From Chitinophagales bacterium (lineage in GTDB: Bacteria > Bacteroidota > Bacteroidia > Chitinophagales > JADIYW01), in contig JBGAWK010000001.1 in assembly GCA_044227665.1 (NCBI GenBank), positions 96,793 through 160,792 on the forward strand: 64,000 bases of DNA, in the 5' to 3' direction. A program made the position numbers and the translations under genes. The notes beneath the pieces are model-generated. The model saw only the letters and a list, made by a program, of their open reading frames with translations, did not search any database and was not told the origin of the DNA. Positions within the stretch are counted from its first letter, which is position 1; each line of letters opens with the position of its first letter. This document shows positions 2,956-17,961 of the stretch, one piece after another.

Positions 2956-4263
2956 TTAAAAAACCTTTATAAAGTCCTGAACATAAATAGAGGTAGTAGA
3001 GGCGAGTTTTATTGTATAACATCCTGCTGCCAAGCTACTTACGTCCATAGAATAATGCTCGGCATTCACAAGATGTTCCTTTTTATCAAAAACAATATTT
3101 CCCGCCACATCTATGAGTTGTAGATGAAATTCTAAAACATTATTAGGGATAGTGATGAAAAGATGATCTGTTGCGGGATAGGGATAAACAGGTAGGAGAC
3201 TATAAGTAGTTTCTTTTACTGGGGTAGTGGTGCTTTTGGTATGATATACATTAACGAGTCGGAACTGTCCGTCTTTCCATTCTTTGTTGGCATCTGTCTC
3301 TACGACCTTACAAATATTGTAGCCGCCGTATGTGCTAAAAATATAATCCTCAAATCTATGTATATGCCCCGACATCCATAAAGCAATTTTGTCTCTAAAT
3401 GGAAATACCCCTTTGCTAAGTTTGTCATTTTCTATAGGATCAAATCCATTGACTATAGTAAAAAAATCCTTTGATACGGGATGATGTGATGTGATAAAGA
3501 TGTTTTTTCTATCATAATCGGGTAGCACAGAAAGGGTGTGTACCAACCACGGGAAAGTGCCTTGGTCAAAGTCCATAAGGCGTGCTGCGGCACTGATTCC
3601 TGGCTCAGCGATAATTACGTGTACCCTAGGGTTGAAATCTAAGAACACATAATAGTCCCCTTGATATGCATACCAAAAATTATAGAAATAATGACTTCGT
3701 CGTGATTCCGGATTATACGTTAATTGAGTTCTTGTAGTATCATTCTTTTCTGAAAAAAAGGAGGATAAGGTGTCAAAAGTACTGGAAAATACTTCATTCA
3801 TCACAGAGTCTCCATTGGCGGCGTATGCTTCCTCGCCATAGCGTACATAAGGCCACGCATCATGATTTCCTATCAGGGGGATGTAGGGAATTTCCAAAAG
3901 ATCCAGAATCTCTTTTGCTTTTTCGAATTCAGAACGTTCTCCGCTATCGGTAATATCTCCAGAAACAATCACAAAGCGTATATTTTTTTCTATGTGGTGA
4001 GCATTTATCCAAAGTACAGATTTTAGCAGCCTTTCAGCACTCCACCCACCACCGCCAGAGGGTGCTGTATCATCCATAAATCCGGGACGCCCATAGTCTC
4101 CTTCTCCTTCCCCTACATGTATGTCTGTAATTTGTATGAAAGAATAGGCATATTCCGCCCCCGGCAAACTTTTGTTTACATCTGTAGCAAGAAAAAAAGG
4201 CTCTCCACAATAAATATACGTCGAATACAGAAGCAGTATAAAAACTATAGATAAAACTTTCAT
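2956..4263 (-). CDS. Secreted calcineurin-like metallophosphoesterase with a T9SS type-A C-terminal sorting domain
   Basis: Metallophosphoesterase motifs are present: ITDIHVGEG, SGDITDSG, GNHD, SHHP, GHIH. The C-terminal ~80 aa (YPYPATDHLFITIP...LQLIDVAGNIVF...GCYTIKL...FIKVF) look like a Por_Secre_tail domain. The ORF extends to 4338, but MKVLSIVFILLLYSTYIYCG from ATG 4263 is the plausible signal peptide. Confidence 0.8.
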   Translation of the reverse strand: MKVLSIVFILLLYSTYIYCGEPFFLATDVNKSLPGAEYAYSFIQITDIHVGEGEGDYGRPGFMDDTAPSGGGGWSAERLLKSVLWINAHHIEKNIRFVIVSGDITDSGERSEFEKAKEILDLLEIPYIPLIGNHDAWPYVRYGEEAYAANGDSVMNEVFSSTFDTLSSFFSEKNDTTRTQLTYNPESRRSHYFYNFWYAYQGDYYVFLDFNPRVHVIIAEPGISAAARLMDFDQGTFPWLVHTLSVLPDYDRKNIFITSHHPVSKDFFTIVNGFDPIENDKLSKGVFPFRDKIALWMSGHIHRFEDYIFSTYGGYNICKVVETDANKEWKDGQFRLVNVYHTKSTTTPVKETTYSLLPVYPYPATDHLFITIPNNVLEFHLQLIDVAGNIVFDKKEHLVNAEHYSMDVSSLAAGCYTIKLASTTSIYVQDFIKVF

Positions 4264-4382
4264 TCTTACAATATTACTGCTAAAATCAATAATATTATAA
4301 CATAACGATAAAAGCATATATCCACAAATAATGGACATGCAATGTATTTTCGCAGATTAATTCAAATTTTTAGTAAGTCATT

Positions 4383-5381
4383 ATGATTCAGACGGATATA
4401 TGTATTATAGGCGCAGGACCGGTGGGTTTGTTCGCTGTATTTGAAGCGGGACTGTTGAAGATGCGATGCCATCTTGTGGACTATCTGCCACAGGTAGGGG
4501 GACAGCTTTCTGAAATATATCCCAAAAAGCCTATTTATGACATCCCCGGATTCCCGGTAGTCATGGCGCAAGAGCTGATAGACAATCTTATAGAACAGGG
4601 CAAGCCTTTCCATCCCACATTTACCCTGGGGGAGCGCATAGAATCCGTAGCTAAAACAGACACTGGGTTTATGCTCTTGACGCATAAAGGAACAGAAATT
4701 GCTGCCAAAGTAGTATGTATTGCAGGCGGTCTTGGGTGCTTTGAGCCACGTAAGCCCGAGATACCAAGTCTGTCTTCCTATGAAGATAAAGGGGTAGCCT
4801 ACATGGTATTAGATCCCGAAAAATTTAGAAATAAGAAAGTAGTCATAGCTGGTGGAGGGGACTCAGCACTAGACTGGGCTATTTTTCTTGCAGACCTAGC
4901 GGCAGAACTTCATTTAGTGCATAGAGGGGAAATGTTTCGGGGTGCGCCAGATTCAGCAGAAAAGGTGAAAAATTTACATGAGCAAGGCAGGCTTACCTTG
5001 CATCTAAATTCTAACGTTACAGCAATAAATGGAGATGGCAAAGTAGAGCAAGTTACCATATCTCATAAAGAGGGCAGCTCTATAGACATTGCCACAGATG
5101 ATTTTTTGCCCTTATTTGGACTCAGCCCCAAGTTGGGACCTTTAGCAAACTGGGGACTTAATCTCGAAAAAAATGCCATCCTCGTTAATACGGTAGATTA
5201 TTCTACCAATGTTGCTGGAATTTTTGCCATAGGGGATATCAATCAATACGAAGGAAAATTAAAATTGATACTTTGTGGTTTCCACGAGGCGGCACTTATG
5301 GCGCAGAGCGCGTATGAGATAGTAAATAATAAGAAAGCGAGTCTAAAATATACCACCGTAAACGGAATTCAAGAGTTCTAA
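4383..5381 (+). CDS. Ferredoxin-NADP+ reductase, thioredoxin-reductase-like type (YumC-like)
   Basis: 332 aa. It has an N-terminal FAD GxGxxG (IIGAGPVGLFA), a second dinucleotide site (IAGGGDSALDWA), and the conserved YPKKPIYDIPGFP stretch typical of TrxR-type FNRs. Confidence 0.8.
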   Translation: MIQTDICIIGAGPVGLFAVFEAGLLKMRCHLVDYLPQVGGQLSEIYPKKPIYDIPGFPVVMAQELIDNLIEQGKPFHPTFTLGERIESVAKTDTGFMLLTHKGTEIAAKVVCIAGGLGCFEPRKPEIPSLSSYEDKGVAYMVLDPEKFRNKKVVIAGGGDSALDWAIFLADLAAELHLVHRGEMFRGAPDSAEKVKNLHEQGRLTLHLNSNVTAINGDGKVEQVTISHKEGSSIDIATDDFLPLFGLSPKLGPLANWGLNLEKNAILVNTVDYSTNVAGIFAIGDINQYEGKLKLILCGFHEAALMAQSAYEIVNNKKASLKYTTVNGIQEF

Positions 5382-5383
5382 AA

Positions 5384-5719
5384 ATGGACAGCATAAAAAT
5401 TTATATCCAAAAACCAGACCTTACCTTTGACACCTTAGATATACCACTGGGGATAGACCTGAGCCTCATGGAAATTCTAAAAGGAGAAGGCTATGATATA
5501 GAAGCCACCTGTGGCGGCATGGCATTATGTGCTACCTGTAGAGTACAGGTTTTGAATGCAGCGGAACTGAACATCCGTAGTGCCTGTGATGACGAATTGG
5601 CTATGCTGGAGAGCCTGCCCTGCTATACGGGCAATTGCAGACTTTCGTGCCAAATCAGGATAGCAGAAGAAATAGATGGCTTAATGATAAAATTTCCTGA
5701 AGAGTCCTTCGTCTTTTAA
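5384..5719 (+). CDS. 2Fe-2S ferredoxin (adrenodoxin/putidaredoxin-like)
   Basis: 111 aa. Cluster ligand pattern CGGMALCATCRV ... LSCQI. It starts 3 nt after the FNR stop. Confidence 0.8.
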   Translation: MDSIKIYIQKPDLTFDTLDIPLGIDLSLMEILKGEGYDIEATCGGMALCATCRVQVLNAAELNIRSACDDELAMLESLPCYTGNCRLSCQIRIAEEIDGLMIKFPEESFVF

Positions 5720-5733
5720 TTTTTTTTATCTTT

Positions 5734-6837
5734 ATGATAAGAAAAAAAAATATGGAAGACCCAATAGTGGACGACTTAGCGTTCTCGTTGCCCGACAAGC
5801 AGAAAATAAAGCTGATTAGAGAAGAAGTAACGCTATCCGCTAAAGAAATCAAGCAGAAATATCCGCTCTTACAGCATCAAAATGCTATAGGCATGGGTAT
5901 AATGTTGTTTGCTGTGGCAATGATAGTCATACTGTCGTATTTCTATTGGCTGGGAAAGATTTCAGCATGGGTACTCATCCCTTGGAATGCTTTTTGGATG
6001 GCCATATTACATGAATTAGAACACGATACGATACATTATATGTATTTTAAAAGGAATAAAGCCATACAAGATTTTATTCTCCTTACCGTATGGCTGTTTC
6101 GCCCTACCACAATAAATCCTTGGTTTCGCAGACATTTACACTTCAATCACCACAGAGTATCTGGTACTAGAGCGGACATTGAAGAGCGGTCGGTGACAAA
6201 TGGAGAGCCGTGGTCTCTGAAAAGACTTATCTCTACGCCCGACCTTATAGTAGGGGGAATATTGAGGATGGCAACATTGAAGAAAGATATAATCGAAATG
6301 GTGAAAAGCGGTCAGATGACTAGAGAAGAAGCTCTGCGCCTAAAAAAACAAAATGCTCTAGGCTTTTTGCCTTTTGGAATTTTTATATACCTTATTTGGT
6401 ATGTCTTCCTTGCCCATTATGCCATACAGGGTGTGACTTCATGGATGCACATCCCCTATACTTCTCCCGATTGGATACAAGCGCAGTTTACATGGATAAA
6501 TCCCTTGGCAGCTATTTTAATTGCACCTAATATGTTGCGTCAATTTTGCTTACATTTCATCACTTCCAATATGCATTACTATGGCGATGTAGAGTCAGGA
6601 AATATCATGCAGCAGACACAGATACTCAATGTATGGTGGTTGCTACCACTCCAATTATTTTGCTTCAACTTTGGAAGTACTCATGCCATACATCATTTTG
6701 TAGTAGGAGAGACTTTCTATATACGCCAACTTACCGTTGCCCGTGCGCATCGCATCATGCGGGATATGGGTGTAAGATTCAATGATATCCAGACTTTTAT
6801 TAGAGCCAATAGATGGACTGTGACATATAGGCACTAA
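5734..6837 (+). CDS. Membrane fatty-acid-desaturase-family di-iron oxygenase
   Basis: 367 aa with three His boxes (HELEHD, HFNHHR, HAIHHF) separated by hydrophobic segments. An alternative start exists at 5752 (MEDPIV) after an A9 run. Confidence 0.7.
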   Translation: MIRKKNMEDPIVDDLAFSLPDKQKIKLIREEVTLSAKEIKQKYPLLQHQNAIGMGIMLFAVAMIVILSYFYWLGKISAWVLIPWNAFWMAILHELEHDTIHYMYFKRNKAIQDFILLTVWLFRPTTINPWFRRHLHFNHHRVSGTRADIEERSVTNGEPWSLKRLISTPDLIVGGILRMATLKKDIIEMVKSGQMTREEALRLKKQNALGFLPFGIFIYLIWYVFLAHYAIQGVTSWMHIPYTSPDWIQAQFTWINPLAAILIAPNMLRQFCLHFITSNMHYYGDVESGNIMQQTQILNVWWLLPLQLFCFNFGSTHAIHHFVVGETFYIRQLTVARAHRIMRDMGVRFNDIQTFIRANRWTVTYRH

Positions 6838-12161: not shown

Positions 12162-13058
12162 ATGAGAAAACTTTTGTATCTTCTAGGAATAGTATTGACA
12201 ATTGCCATTGGATGCTGGCTTTACAGTAAATATTGTTGCAACTGCTGTAGTAATGAATGCGAAGAAAAAAAATCAGAACTAACTGATATGCAGAGACATG
12301 GATTTGCACTTAATTTTGACAATGAGTTGAATCTTAAAAGTGATTATAATATAGATTTCTTAAAAAATGGGTTCGATCACCTATCGCCAATTAATGCAGA
12401 GCTGGACGGACAATTAGTAGAACTTAAAAGTTATTTTGATAAAAATAGCGGAAAAAGAATTTTGAAAATTACAGGACTTTGCACTGCCGACGAGAAGAAC
12501 ACTTCGATGTTTCCAAATTTAGGCTTTGCTCGAGCCAATAATATCAAAAACTATCTAGTGTCCAAGGGTATGGCCGCACAAAGTATAGAGATAGATGGAA
12601 TAGTGAAAGATGCATTGTCTGCAAATGGGGATACTATTTTGGGCCCTGTAGATTTCTCTATTAGTAAAGTAGATGAAAGTACTCCCGTAGAAGATTATAA
12701 TGCCCTGAAACAAAAGATTAATGCCAACCCACTTACATTATATTTTGAAACGGGACAATCAGAAATTACTCTTTCAGAAGAGCAACGCAGCATCGTCGCC
12801 TCTATAGTAAGATATTTAGACAAAGTACCGAGTGCCAAAGCTGTAGCGGTAGGTCATACAGATAATGTTGGTGACAGACAAGCAAATATAAATCTTGGGA
12901 AACAAAGGGCGGATTTTGCAAAAGAAATATTGCAAAAAAATGGTATAAACAGCAGTCAATTACTTAGCGATTCAAAAGGCCCGGATCAGCCTATTGCGGA
13001 CAATGGCACAGCAGAAGGTAAGGCTAAAAACAGAAGAGTAACAGTTAATATTCAATAA
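12162..13058 (+). CDS. OmpA-family peptidoglycan-binding protein with an N-terminal TM and a Cys cluster
   Basis: 298 aa. C-terminal OmpA domain (GHTDNVGDRQANINLGKQRADFAKEIL...AKNRRVTVNI). The N-terminus has a TM followed by CCNCCSNEC. Confidence 0.8.
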   Translation: MRKLLYLLGIVLTIAIGCWLYSKYCCNCCSNECEEKKSELTDMQRHGFALNFDNELNLKSDYNIDFLKNGFDHLSPINAELDGQLVELKSYFDKNSGKRILKITGLCTADEKNTSMFPNLGFARANNIKNYLVSKGMAAQSIEIDGIVKDALSANGDTILGPVDFSISKVDESTPVEDYNALKQKINANPLTLYFETGQSEITLSEEQRSIVASIVRYLDKVPSAKAVAVGHTDNVGDRQANINLGKQRADFAKEILQKNGINSSQLLSDSKGPDQPIADNGTAEGKAKNRRVTVNIQ

Positions 13059-13075
13059 TTTTAAATATAAATATC

Positions 13076-13768
13076 ATGTGTATCACTTGTATTTTAATTC
13101 CACTACTTACGGGTTTGGTGGCAGCACTTTTGGGCTATCTATTAGGTAAAAAGTCCTGCAACGCTAATGCTAATGATATGGCATTAATCACACAGTTTGA
13201 AAACCTAAAGACAGAAAGAGACAGTCTTATTGGCAAAAATACTGACCTGAGCAACCGCCTTGCCACAATGGGTACTACGAGTTCTACTGAAGTGGAATTG
13301 AGAGCCAATATCAGTGCCTTGGAAACAGAACTTGACAAACTAAAGAAAGCACTTAGCGATTGTGAAAATAATGCGCACAAAACCGAGGGGGATGACTGGA
13401 AAGCAAAATTTGATGCTCTTGCCAATGAATTTACTACCCATAGGGCAGGTGCAGACAATAAAATTGCTTCGCTTACCAGTGAAATTGATGCACTTCGTAT
13501 AGCTTCGGCACCCATAGAGCCTGATGACCTCAAAATTGTAGAAGGGATAGGTTCCAAAATCGAAGAGTTGCTCAACAACCACAAAATTTTTACATTCAAA
13601 CAATTATCAAATACTGCAATTGACGTATTGCGAGATATGCTTGATAGTGCAGGACCTAATTACAAAATTCATGACCCCGGCACATGGCCACGTCAGGCAC
13701 AGTTGGCACATGAAGGCAAGTGGGATGAACTTAAAACTTGGCAGGATGAACTGCAAGGTGGCAAGTAA
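13076..13768 (+). CDS. Membrane-anchored coiled-coil protein with a C-terminal helix-hairpin-helix-like module
   Basis: 230 aa. An N-terminal TM (MCITCILIPLLTGLVAALLGYLLG) is followed by heptad-rich Q/E/K/L sequence, then IVEGIGSKIEELL...WPRQAQLAHEGKWDELKTWQDEL. Confidence 0.55.
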   Translation: MCITCILIPLLTGLVAALLGYLLGKKSCNANANDMALITQFENLKTERDSLIGKNTDLSNRLATMGTTSSTEVELRANISALETELDKLKKALSDCENNAHKTEGDDWKAKFDALANEFTTHRAGADNKIASLTSEIDALRIASAPIEPDDLKIVEGIGSKIEELLNNHKIFTFKQLSNTAIDVLRDMLDSAGPNYKIHDPGTWPRQAQLAHEGKWDELKTWQDELQGGK

Positions 13769-15504: not shown

Positions 15505-15507
15505 AAT

Positions 15508-15537
15508 AAAAAGGCGTTGGAACTCCAACGCCTTTTT
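15508..15537. terminator. Bidirectional rho-independent terminator between convergent genes
   Basis: aaaaaggcgttgg (15508-15520) / ccaacgccttttt (15525-15537) with a 4-nt loop. A-tract and T-tract flanks let it work on both strands. Confidence 0.85.
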
Positions 15538-15558
15538 ATACATTTTTGCTATCAATTA

Positions 15559-17961
15559 CTACTTACCTTTACAGCATTCTTTAGCCTCTGTTTTTGTGCA
15601 TTCGGCTTTGTCTTTATCACAATCACCTTTGTCCTTTTTACAACAGCTCTTATCCATGCCCTCGCATTTTTCCATCTTTTTGATACAAATCTGTTCTACA
15701 ATAGTATCCCCCTTTTCATTTACGTAAGTGGTATCTTTCATGCAAGAAGGATCGTTCATACAGTCCTTCATACATTCACCCATATCAGAAGTACACGCTT
15801 CTTTCTCACACATTTCTTTTTCGTGACACATATTGTTGCTGCCTGCTGAGGTGTCAGCCCAAGAGCCATTTCCTGCAATATATGGAGCGATAACTAATGA
15901 AACGATAGACATTAATTTTATCAAAATATTCATAGAGGGACCCGAAGTATCTTTGAATGGGTCGCCGACAGTATCGCCAGTTACTGCTGCTTTATGTGGC
16001 TCAGATTTTTTGTAATAGGTCTGACCATTTATCTCTACACCTTTCTCGAAAGATTTTTTTGCATTATCCCAAGCACCACCGGCATTGGACTGAAACATTC
16101 CCATCAATACGCCCGATACGGTAACGCCAGCGAGTAATCCGCCCAACACCTCTGGGCCAAAAATAAAGCCTATAACTATAGGCGTAATAAGAGCTATTGC
16201 TCCCGGTAACATCATCTCACGTATAGACGCCTGTGTAGAGATAGCCACACATTTCTCATACTCGGGTTTTGCTTGATATTCCATAATACCCGGAATCTCC
16301 CTGAATTGGCGTCTTACTTCATTTACCATGTCCATAGCCGCCCTACCTACTGCAGATATAGCCAAGGCAGAAAAGATAAAGGGAATCATACCGCCTATAA
16401 ATAATCCTGCCAGAACATTGGCTTTGTATATATCTATGGAAGATATGCCTGAGACCCCTACGAAGGCAGCAAATAATGCCAAAGAGGTAAGAGCAGCAGA
16501 GGCTATGGCAAAACCCTTACCAGTAGCAGCGGTAGTATTACCTACGGCATCCAATATATCAGTACGACCACGTACTTCTTCGGGAAGCTGGCTCATTTCT
16601 GCTATTCCACCTGCATTGTCAGCAATCGGACCGAAAGCATCAATAGCCAGCTGCATGGCTGTAGTTGCCATCATGCCTGCTGCGGCTATCGCTACGCCAT
16701 ATAGCCCTGCACAAAAATATGAGCCAAAAATACCGGCAGCCAACACCAAGATAGGCAATACCGTGCTTTCCATGCCTACTGCTAAACCACCAATAATATT
16801 GGTAGCATGACCAGTAGAGGATTGCTTTACGATAGACAGTACCGGACGCTTGCCCATTGCTGTATAGTATTCTGTAATGATAGACATCAATGCACCTACT
16901 ACGAGACCTACGGCAATAGCACCCAATACACCCCATTTGGTGAACTCATGGCCACGGAGACTCATGGTTTCTGGAAGTATATAATATACTAATCCTATAC
17001 ATGCCAAGCCTGTAAGTATTATAGAACCCCAGTTGCCTCTATTCAATGCCGACTGTACGTCTCCATTGTCATTATTTACGCTTACAAAAAATGTTCCTAT
17101 CCAAGAAAAAATTATTCCCGTACCTGCAATAGCCATAGGCAGTAATATGGGCGCAAGACCATTAAATCCATCTACGGAAATAGTTTCTTGCCCCAATACC
17201 ATCGTAGCCAATACCGTAGCCACATACGAGCCGAAAAGATCGGCACCCATACCCGCGACATCACCCACATTGTCACCCACATTATCAGCGATAGTAGCTG
17301 GATTTCTTACATCGTCTTCAGGGATGCCAGCCTCCACTTTTCCTACTAAGTCTGCACCCACATCGGCAGCCTTAGTATAAATACCGCCACCCACACGAGC
17401 GAATAACGCTATAGACTCTGCTCCCAATGAAAATCCTGTAAGTACTTCTATGGCTCTTTTTACATTTGAAGGGTCTATATCTCCTTGAAATATAGTATAA
17501 AAGACGATAAATAGACCACCTAGTCCCAGTACCGCAAGTCCTGCTACGCCCAGTCCCATCACAGAACCGCCGGTGAAAGAAACTTTTAGTGCTTGAGCCA
17601 AGCTGGTACGTGCTGCTTGTGTCGTACGCACGTTGGCAAGCGTGGCTACACGCATACCTATATATCCCGCAGTAGCGGAGAATACGGCACCTATAAGGAA
17701 GGCTATGGCAATAATCGGGGAGGACTCTTCTCCACCCTTCCATCCTAGAAAGGCCAAGAGTATAGCGGCAATGATACCGAAATACGTCAAAACTTTCCAC
17801 TCTGCCTTCAAGAAAGCTATCGCGCCATTGGCAATATATCCTGCCAATTCTTGCATATTTTCATTACCGGCATCTTGCTTGGATACCCACGCATACTTTA
17901 GCGCAGTAATGATTAGACCAAAAATACCCAAAAAAGGGATTACATAAAATAAATTATTCAT
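15559..17961 (-). CDS. hppA: Membrane-integral K+-dependent-type ion-translocating pyrophosphatase carrying an unusual C-terminal Cys/Met/Lys-rich extension
   Basis: 800 aa. Canonical mPPase motifs are present (GGIYTKAADVGADLVGK, DNVGDNVGD, GNTTAATGKGFAI, DTVGDPFKDTSGPS). Ala in GNTTAA marks the K+-dependent subfamily. The last 103 aa are not mPPase-like. Confidence 0.95.
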   Translation of the reverse strand: MNNLFYVIPFLGIFGLIITALKYAWVSKQDAGNENMQELAGYIANGAIAFLKAEWKVLTYFGIIAAILLAFLGWKGGEESSPIIAIAFLIGAVFSATAGYIGMRVATLANVRTTQAARTSLAQALKVSFTGGSVMGLGVAGLAVLGLGGLFIVFYTIFQGDIDPSNVKRAIEVLTGFSLGAESIALFARVGGGIYTKAADVGADLVGKVEAGIPEDDVRNPATIADNVGDNVGDVAGMGADLFGSYVATVLATMVLGQETISVDGFNGLAPILLPMAIAGTGIIFSWIGTFFVSVNNDNGDVQSALNRGNWGSIILTGLACIGLVYYILPETMSLRGHEFTKWGVLGAIAVGLVVGALMSIITEYYTAMGKRPVLSIVKQSSTGHATNIIGGLAVGMESTVLPILVLAAGIFGSYFCAGLYGVAIAAAGMMATTAMQLAIDAFGPIADNAGGIAEMSQLPEEVRGRTDILDAVGNTTAATGKGFAIASAALTSLALFAAFVGVSGISSIDIYKANVLAGLFIGGMIPFIFSALAISAVGRAAMDMVNEVRRQFREIPGIMEYQAKPEYEKCVAISTQASIREMMLPGAIALITPIVIGFIFGPEVLGGLLAGVTVSGVLMGMFQSNAGGAWDNAKKSFEKGVEINGQTYYKKSEPHKAAVTGDTVGDPFKDTSGPSMNILIKLMSIVSLVIAPYIAGNGSWADTSAGSNNMCHEKEMCEKEACTSDMGECMKDCMNDPSCMKDTTYVNEKGDTIVEQICIKKMEKCEGMDKSCCKKDKGDCDKDKAECTKTEAKECCKGK

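Follow-up and report, generated by a model that had tools for sequence, protein, structure and literature searches.

The DNA analysed here, called the window below, is a stretch of 64,000 nucleotides of contig JBGAWK010000001.1 (positions 96,793 to 160,792) from the Chitinophagales assembly GCA_044227665.1. It encodes on its reverse strand a membrane pyrophosphatase (mPPase) of 800 residues, the last 103 of which form a tail rich in Cys, Met and Lys. We found that this tail is genuine, that it is coding, and that it is conserved in a short hairpin and at most of its Cys residues; the joint statement that it is real, conserved and periplasmic can be made with high confidence. As judged from database searches and alignments, it is one subtype of a set of undescribed Cys/Met-rich extensions, found so far only on pumps of one Bacteroidota clade. 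Tails of this kind are present on hundreds of related Bacteroidota pumps, and are widespread in environmental Bacteroidota.

Composition of the tail

The tail (residues 698-800, nucleotides 15562-15870) follows LMSIVSLVIAPYIAG directly after the last membrane helix. The last hydrophobic stretch of the protein spans residues 673-699, and no hydrophobic segment was detected in the tail (maximum 19-residue Kyte-Doolittle score -0.22). An earlier note on this DNA had described the tail, and its sequence is exactly as quoted there, with 14 Cys and 8 Met; it further contains 18 Lys, 23 Asp or Glu and no Arg, for an isoelectric point of 5.0. Cys accounts for 13.6% of the tail, compared to 1.36% in the other 44 open reading frames (ORFs) of the window (binomial P = 1.6e-10), and every other 103-residue stretch in the window holds at most 7 Cys. 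Successive Cys are separated by 5, 4, 6, 3, 5, 18, 6, 6, 0, 6, 6, 7 and 0 residues, giving one CxxxC, one CxxxxC and two CC pairs. The CxxxxC and CC spacings announced in the note are therefore present, whereas its CxxC-like spacing is absent, and CxC is absent as well.

The AlphaFold model of the tail has a mean confidence score (predicted local distance difference test, pLDDT) of 48.8, too low for a meaningful fold search. It predicts a hairpin and two short helices. The only confident part corresponds to two predicted strands, at tail residues 44-50 and 56-63 (pLDDT 73-85); a weak helix is predicted at residues 27-39.

Conservation and selection

A genome scan provided the 80 closest species-level relatives, and each pump ORF was followed through to its stop. 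The nearest relative, L001, is a Chitinophagales metagenome-assembled genome (82-84% identity, 84% for the pump core), with a tail of 116 residues that is 41% identical to the window tail. Overall, L001 and metagenome proteins carry window-type tails at 39-53% identity on independent pump genes. The metagenome carriers are nine in number (P0001-4, P0009 and P0121-124), and a tenth copy, P0006, is truncated. The orthologue comparison proposed in the earlier note thus shows that the tail is not unique to one assembly.

Conservation is concentrated at a few places. D46, T47, T48, Y49 and G54 are invariant across 11 sequences (alignments A1-A3), and among near-full tails T56, I57, V58, E59, C62 and I63 vary little or not at all. 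In the same alignments, Cys is conserved at tail positions 33, 37, 62, 76 and 100, and a terminal [DE]CC-x-K is kept. M30, C33 and C37 are invariant in A1/A2, while C76, C100 and K103 are nearly invariant among window-type tails. We provisionally named this subtype the 'DTTY hairpin' and described it by C-x3-C, DTTY-x4-G-x-TIVE-x2-CI and the terminal [DE]CC-x-K, all of which the window tail contains. Between 5 and 10 of its 14 Cys are matched in relatives. Identity reaches 72-80% in Cys columns, compared to about 50% for other residues, a difference to which the aligner contributes, as its scoring favours Cys-Cys matches.

Nonsynonymous and synonymous divergences (dN and dS) were computed from the DNA of L001 and seven metagenome contigs; many pairs were synonymously saturated, so that the ratios are rough. 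Where dS could be estimated, dN/dS was 0.06-0.33 for the tail (mostly 0.1-0.17), with dN of 0.2-0.5, compared to a dN/dS of 0.02-0.07 and a dN of 0.02-0.09 for the adjacent pump core. The tail changes roughly ten times faster than the core, yet, since its dN/dS is well below 1, it is clearly constrained by purifying selection.

These data bear on whether a missed stop or a frameshift could have fused the pump to unrelated sequence, in the assembly or in its annotation. In one metagenome contig, L094, an in-frame stop separates the pump from the Cys module, and in two others, L161 and L163, the pump gene is split into two calls, well upstream of the tail, as such an artefact might produce. The architecture is nevertheless continuous in the window, in 13 independent species genomes including that of the cultured Rurimicrobium arvi JCM 31921 (L024), whose pump tail has 8 Cys, and at 79 of 80 metagenome loci; the reading frame is under purifying selection, and the tail DNA has the same GC content as the window. 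Because independent assemblies, R. arvi among them, show the continuous architecture, a run-on artefact can be set aside as extremely improbable. This agrees with the earlier note, which had argued from the TAG stop and the terminator after it. The TAG is also followed by an in-frame TAA. The long gene models of these pumps are not errors.

The window subtype appears to be rare. Its profile, run against 1.84 billion representative proteins, recovered only 3 further members, each a fragment of such a tail, and no other kind of protein that carries it. The search with the tail alone that the note had suggested retrieved no described family: there was no candidate in a word index of 5.8 billion proteins, and no match in Pfam, NCBIfam or PDB sequences except a sub-threshold one to CHASE9 (E = 0.074), which we regard as due to chance.

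Some loci with window-type tails show particularities. In L161 (positions 3-1800) and L163 (3-1256), the two ORFs called for the pump gene overlap and adjoin each other, respectively; these splits are likely to be frameshifts in low-coverage assemblies. Downstream genes code for a CAP-domain protein in L161, L163 and L165 and for a 141-residue protein in L161, L162 and L163; neither is found downstream in the window.

C-terminal extensions across the pump clade

Among the 80 relatives, 13 have Cys/Met-rich tails of 79-167 residues with 7-25 Cys. Nine others carry a periplasmic domain fused after helix 16, located at about 4001-6700 of each locus: a YceI domain in three (L019, L025 and L044), an FKBP_N plus FKBP_C isomerase in three (L002, L013 and L014), and an OmpA-family domain in three (L026, L041 and L076), including the cultured Emticicia aquatica. 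Four pumps end 3 residues past helix 16, and most of the remaining ones have K/E/T/V-rich tails of 20-45 residues. The statement of the earlier note that mPPases end shortly after their last helix is correct for solved enzymes such as VrPPase (Vigna radiata), but not for this clade, in which tails of 20-45 residues are the norm.

On a neighbour-joining tree of the cores, the tail types were interleaved, and Cys-rich tails occurred in at least five places. In this clade, then, the pump C-terminus is a hot spot for extensions. Two side observations concern these loci. A small Cys motif (KCNINGQEYTCTSKAQCDSIM), which is conserved, comes before the YceI fusions. The pumps of L035, L070, L072 and L078, which are labelled Pyrinomonadaceae/Acidobacteriota, are nested within the Bacteroidota clade on the core tree and end 3 residues after helix 16; horizontal transfer or mis-binning could account for their position.

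Such lability raises the question of whether the tail is a tolerated low-complexity appendage with little function, the pump C-terminus being simply a site permissive for accretion and drift. The interleaving of Cys-rich, short, YceI, FKBP and OmpA types, the approximately tenfold higher dN of the tail and the lack of detectable homology between tail subtypes are all in line with this proposal. Drift alone, however, should bring dN/dS to about 1, far above the ratios obtained, and should not leave invariant hairpin residues and conserved Cys in sequences that are only about 40% identical overall, nor keep one Cys module at the same place in pump after pump (see below). We therefore consider a functionless tail unlikely.

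The Cys-rich tails fall into several sequence types that profile comparison does not connect. For the window subtype, profile-profile comparison gave a probability of 0.6% with the module of the commonest type (module A, see below), and of 3.4%, restricted to the hairpin turn, with the short Cys-free tails; common ancestry is not demonstrable in either case. The commonest type contains a 37-residue module, named module A, with the pattern C-x4-C-x7-C-x3-C-x4-C-x7-C (consensus CDMxKCxxMTKEECAAYCDSMxCTPEQKxxC) and 5-6 near-invariant Cys. AlphaFold predicts it as three short helices (pLDDT 83-90), and the stretch downstream, Cx3Cx3C...Cx3Cx3C, as a helical hairpin. Module A matched no family in Pfam or NCBIfam. 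A metagenome scan found module A in at least 402 stretches, and in all 80 that were fetched it was in line with the pump gene, just after helix 16. In L094 (about 500-840 of this 1051-bp contig), the in-frame stop (...ANLN*CDMDKC...) precedes an otherwise intact Cys module, and could be a sequencing error, a pseudogene or a site of read-through. Since the window subtype is rare and was found on no other protein, the modules seem to have arisen within the tail of this pump and not to be mobile domains.

Side of the membrane

In the solved mPPases of Thermotoga maritima (TmPPase) and V. radiata (VrPPase), both termini lie on the non-cytoplasmic side. The tail of the window pump is most likely periplasmic, as the earlier note had proposed, because homology extends over all 16 helices with no extra hydrophobic segment before or after, and because orthologues carry periplasmic YceI, FKBP (FkpA-like) or OmpA-like peptidoglycan-binding domains at the same junction. 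The ion gate and the exit channel are housed in an inner ring of six helices, helix 16 among them (PMC10897367), so that the tail would emerge near the ion exit.

Possible functions of the tail

The composition of 44 unique Cys-rich tails was examined: Cys amounts to 11.9%, Met to 8.1%, His to 3.2% and Lys to 12.8%, while Val, Ile, Leu, Phe and Trp together reach about 6.5%. Met is at 1.5% in Cys-free tails and 2.5% in the proteins of the window. The 44 tails contain 83 CxxxC, 63-70 CxxxxC (according to two counts) and 62 CC, compared to 3 CxxC and 3 CxC; spacings between Cys peak at 0, 3, 4 and 7 residues and are almost never 1 or 2. In a set of 95 tails, the Cys count was even in 51 and odd in 44, and ranged from 7 to 28 between lineages. 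A CC pair occurs within the last 12 residues of 22 of the 95, and a terminal CC followed by Lys recurs in tail types other than that of the window. Some sister tails have His-rich ends or M/H/C repeats, for example HEHNHEHGDHQH and MAAMHKDGKEC repeats.

Metal binding is, in our tentative and somewhat less than even estimate, the main chemistry of the tail. The tail would be a largely unstructured array of sulfur ligands tethered at the ion exit of the pump. Its ligands for soft or borderline metals, Cu(I) or Ag(I) and possibly Zn or Cd, would be Met thioethers and Cys thiolates, those of the CC pairs included; the chain would fold around the bound ions, some Cys perhaps being stapled by disulfides, and the whole would serve in the periplasm as a metal buffer or sensor tethered to the membrane. 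Three observations lead us to favour a ligand-binding array: Met is enriched together with Cys, even Cys counts are not preferred, and little structure is predicted. The near balance of even and odd counts indicates that not all Cys are paired within one chain, the large hydrophobic residues are too few for the core of an ordinary globular domain, and the scarcity of fixed structure outside the hairpin in the AlphaFold model is as expected of a chain that folds on its ligand. There are precedents: in the periplasm, Csp1 uses Cys-lined helices to store Cu(I) (PMC7558416) and SilE acts as a metal sponge that is disordered (PMC5008109), and the C-terminal di-Cys tail of plant HMA4 has nanomolar affinity for Zn (PMC6255694).

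Several results weigh against metal binding. No metal-binding family was matched, either by the sequence of any tail (four to five sister Cys-rich tails gave no Pfam or NCBIfam match at E <= 1) or by a Foldseek search against PDB with the module A model, the only tail model searched (best E = 3.7). The classic thiolate-cluster motifs, CxC and CxxC, are nearly absent, and His is not enriched relative to Cys-free tails. In a test of Cys-to-Met interchange, Met was not enriched among the replacements of Cys, with 35 substitutions only. In the window, the genes next to the pump include none for metal homeostasis or redox functions, and gene content around tail-bearing pumps shows no conservation: none of the 13 genome loci with Cys tails has neighbours in common with the window. 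Nor is it evident why a proton pump would need a transition-metal site. Finally, a tail exported unfolded into the oxidising periplasm would be a ready substrate for disulfide formation by DsbA.

This last point leads to the possibility that the tail is a disulfide-stapled structural ectodomain: after export, its Cys would pair into a small cross-linked module, made of the hairpin and helices, which would bind no metal and would sit on the pump's periplasmic side to serve as a protective cap, a spacer, a dimer clasp or a redox-sensitive plug. The periplasmic location favours oxidation, the Cys count of the window tail is even, and Cys are the best-conserved residues. The preferred spacings of 3, 4 and 7 (i+4, i+5 and i+8) put most Cys on one face of a helix, a periodicity similar to that of the twin-Cx3C/Cx9C helical hairpins in the intermembrane space of mitochondria and that, together with the near-invariant Cys of the confidently helical module A and the helical hairpin predicted downstream of it, fits helices stapled by disulfides. 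On the other hand, the set of 95 tails shows no bias towards even counts, and Cys number and framework vary widely between lineages, unlike in classical disulfide-rich folds. Disulfides do not explain the threefold enrichment in Met either, and most of the window tail is predicted to lack fixed structure. A purely structural, metal-free module is possible and, in our opinion, somewhat less likely than metal binding. A mixed solution is also possible, in which some Cys are stapled while CC pairs and Met serve as ligands; mitochondrial Cox17 is an example of such mixed use of Cys.

The joint enrichment of Cys and Met, the two oxidisable sulfur residues, could also suggest a sacrificial oxidant sink or redox buffer, in which the tail would scavenge peroxide, hypochlorite or other oxidants and so protect the membrane or the pump itself. 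In favour of this role, the tail is flexible and exposed, and many relatives come from lake and soil metagenomes. It leaves unexplained the invariant hairpin, the conserved Cys positions and the terminal ECCKxK, however, and the window has no adjoining gene for a methionine-sulfoxide or thiol reductase. We consider it quite unlikely.

Periplasmic or lumenal elements near the exit channel may affect catalysis, as suggested by studies in which the plant lumenal loop 2-3 was found to matter for catalysis (PMC8657866), and the site of the allosteric inhibitor ATC and the exit-channel loops in TmPPase (PMC10897367). A bolder proposal, which we think unlikely to hold, is that the tail senses metal or redox state in the periplasm and, docked on the exit-channel loops of the H+-pumping pyrophosphatase dimer, gates proton release. 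If this were true, the chemical state of the periplasm would be coupled to membrane energisation driven by pyrophosphate. No membrane pyrophosphatase is known to be regulated on this principle, which would be carried by domain families exclusive to this pump.

Membrane pyrophosphatases have been treated as self-contained 16-helix pumps, and an OmpA-like domain is the only appended module that we found in the literature. In the clade of environmental Bacteroidota pumps described here, periplasmic modules are attached where helix 16 ends, at the ion exit. The Cys/Met-rich extensions are among these modules, and they were found nowhere else and match no family. Should they bind metal or sense redox state, they would represent new metal-binding sequence families, and possibly the first case in which primary pumps of this class receive a regulatory input from outside the cytoplasm.

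Gene layout and neighbours

The features of the gene are listed in Table 1. The strong bidirectional terminator that the earlier note placed after the TAG is borne out by a hairpin 20 nucleotides downstream of the pump stop, which is likely to serve as a terminator in both directions. An antisense ORF of 110 residues, 15517-15849 (+), rich in Phe and Leu, lies opposite the tail; we regard it not as a gene but as the mirror image of Lys/Glu-rich coding sequence.

Table 1. Position of the pump gene, its parts and its 3' end in the window
Feature	Position	Strand	Basis or remark
Whole gene, 800-residue membrane pyrophosphatase with C-terminal extension	15559-17961	-	ORF, PF03030, NF001955, PDB homologues VrPPase and TmPPase
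Pump core, residues 1-697, 16-helix mPPase; Glu 5.43, Gly 6.53, Ala 6.57, Ala 12.46	15871-17961	-	VrPPase alignment and motif tally
Linker, tail residues 1-14 (NGSWADTSAGSNNM), right after helix 16	15829-15870	-	Poorly conserved; AlphaFold pLDDT about 30-35
First Cys cluster, tail residues 15-43: 6 Cys (15, 21, 26, 33, 37, 43), 5 Met	15742-15828	-	Cys positions
Conserved beta-hairpin core (predicted), tail residues 44-63 (MKDTTYVNEKGDTIVEQICI)	15682-15741	-	Conservation and AlphaFold strands
Second Cys/Lys cluster, tail residues 64-103: 7 Cys including two CC pairs, C-terminal KECCKGK	15562-15681	-	Cys positions
TAG stop, then in-frame TAA (15556-15558)	15559-15561	-	Sequence
Hairpin with A and T runs on its flanks: 15 pairs, 6 G-C, loop of 4	15506-15539	.	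Between convergent genes

A scan of all loci for further Cys-rich ORFs returned mainly non-coding frames. Two neighbouring genes in the window also encode Cys near a hydrophobic segment. The first, at 12162-13058 (+), specifies an OmpA-family protein (Pfam OmpA at residues 194-291) with an N-terminal membrane anchor and, immediately after it, the Cys cluster KYCCNCCSNECEEKK; with 7 Cys in one 103-residue stretch, it has the second-highest density of the window, and may be another membrane-proximal periplasmic Cys cluster of the same genome. The second, at 13076-13768 (+), encodes a protein of 230 residues that starts MCITCILIPLLTG, with Cys flanking an N-terminal hydrophobic segment and a coiled-coil-like reading after it; it matches no Pfam family.

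Type of the pump core

The protein is a full-length member of Pfam PF03030 (H_PPase): residues 13-691 match profile positions 1-645 of 645 (E = 2.4e-267, 889 bits, curated cut-off 29.7). VrPPase was matched in PDB at E = 1e-172. Alignments with the V. radiata and T. maritima pumps stop 6-10 residues short of the ends of these proteins, at query residues 691-700; for VrPPase, the stop is at residue 700, 6 residues before the chain end.

In the VrPPase alignment, a Glu of the query falls on S235, which we take to be position 5.43, and an Ala falls on E301. The signature rule for the K+-dependent H+-PPase of the Flavobacterium johnsoniae type is described in PMC10897367. The window pump appears to follow it, with the gate Glu at 5.43, and not at 6.53 or 6.57, and Ala rather than Lys at 12.46; the GNTTAA motif is present. 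The same four residues, E5.43/G6.53/A6.57/A12.46, were found in all 78 relatives with readable motifs. By its residue signature, then, the window pump is predicted to be a K+-dependent H+-pumping pyrophosphatase of the F. johnsoniae type. NCBIfam NF001955, which scores 1244.7 bits, over its cut-off, carries the label 'sodium-translocating'. In sodium-translocating enzymes the gate Glu is at 6.53, where the window pump has Gly (DLFGSY). Since the core bears the H+-PPase signature, this label is probably wrong for this pump and for the clade.

Comparison with known systems

We found no paper describing Cys-rich tails on mPPases, in a literature search whose coverage left out most subscription journals. 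The F. johnsoniae-type enzymes share with the window protein the full H_PPase domain and the residues at 5.43, 6.53/6.57 and 12.46; they differ in that the characterised ones are not described with a Cys-rich C-terminal extension, and in the name that NCBIfam gives to the window protein. The closest precedent for an added module is the mPPase of Paucibacter sp. KCTC 42545 (810 residues), in which an OmpA-like domain follows the last helix on the periplasmic side, with a role stated as unknown (PMC11210485). The same 2024 PeerJ review records the OmpA-like C-terminal domain in this betaproteobacterial enzyme and leaves its role open (PMC11210485). Relatives L026, L041 and L076 share this fusion, whereas the window tail, rich in Cys, Met and Lys and poor in hydrophobic residues, gave no OmpA match and has no Pfam domain.

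The earlier note called the tail metallothionein-like, which is apt for its composition only. Like metallothioneins (for example bacterial SmtA/BmtA), it has many Cys, few hydrophobic residues and little predicted structure in the absence of a ligand. Metallothioneins, however, are small cytosolic proteins built on clusters of CxC, CxxC and CC, whereas the tail is probably a periplasmic appendage of a pump in which CC is the only one of these motifs. No metallothionein or copper-storage family was matched, the window tail giving no metallothionein match in Pfam or NCBIfam at E <= 10.

Csp1 resembles the tails by its periplasmic location and by many Cys about one helical turn apart, and has Met/His at its entry sites (PMC7558416). 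Csp proteins differ in being pre-folded four-helix bundles that are Tat-exported, tetrameric and free-standing; the tails gave no Pfam match, and the AlphaFold model of the window tail contains no four-helix bundle. SilE and PcoE are soluble proteins from metal-resistance operons, a setting that the window gene lacks; they use Met and His and are not known to use Cys. What they have in common with the tail is to be disordered periplasmic polypeptides rich in metal ligands, and SilE/PcoE fold on binding Ag or Cu (PMC5008109).

The plant P1B-ATPase HMA4 belongs to an unrelated family, and the pump transports the metal that its tail binds. The HMA4 tail is cytosolic. In its architecture, HMA4 is nonetheless similar to the window protein, as a primary ion pump that bears a Cys-rich C-terminal tail with CC pairs (PMC6255694).

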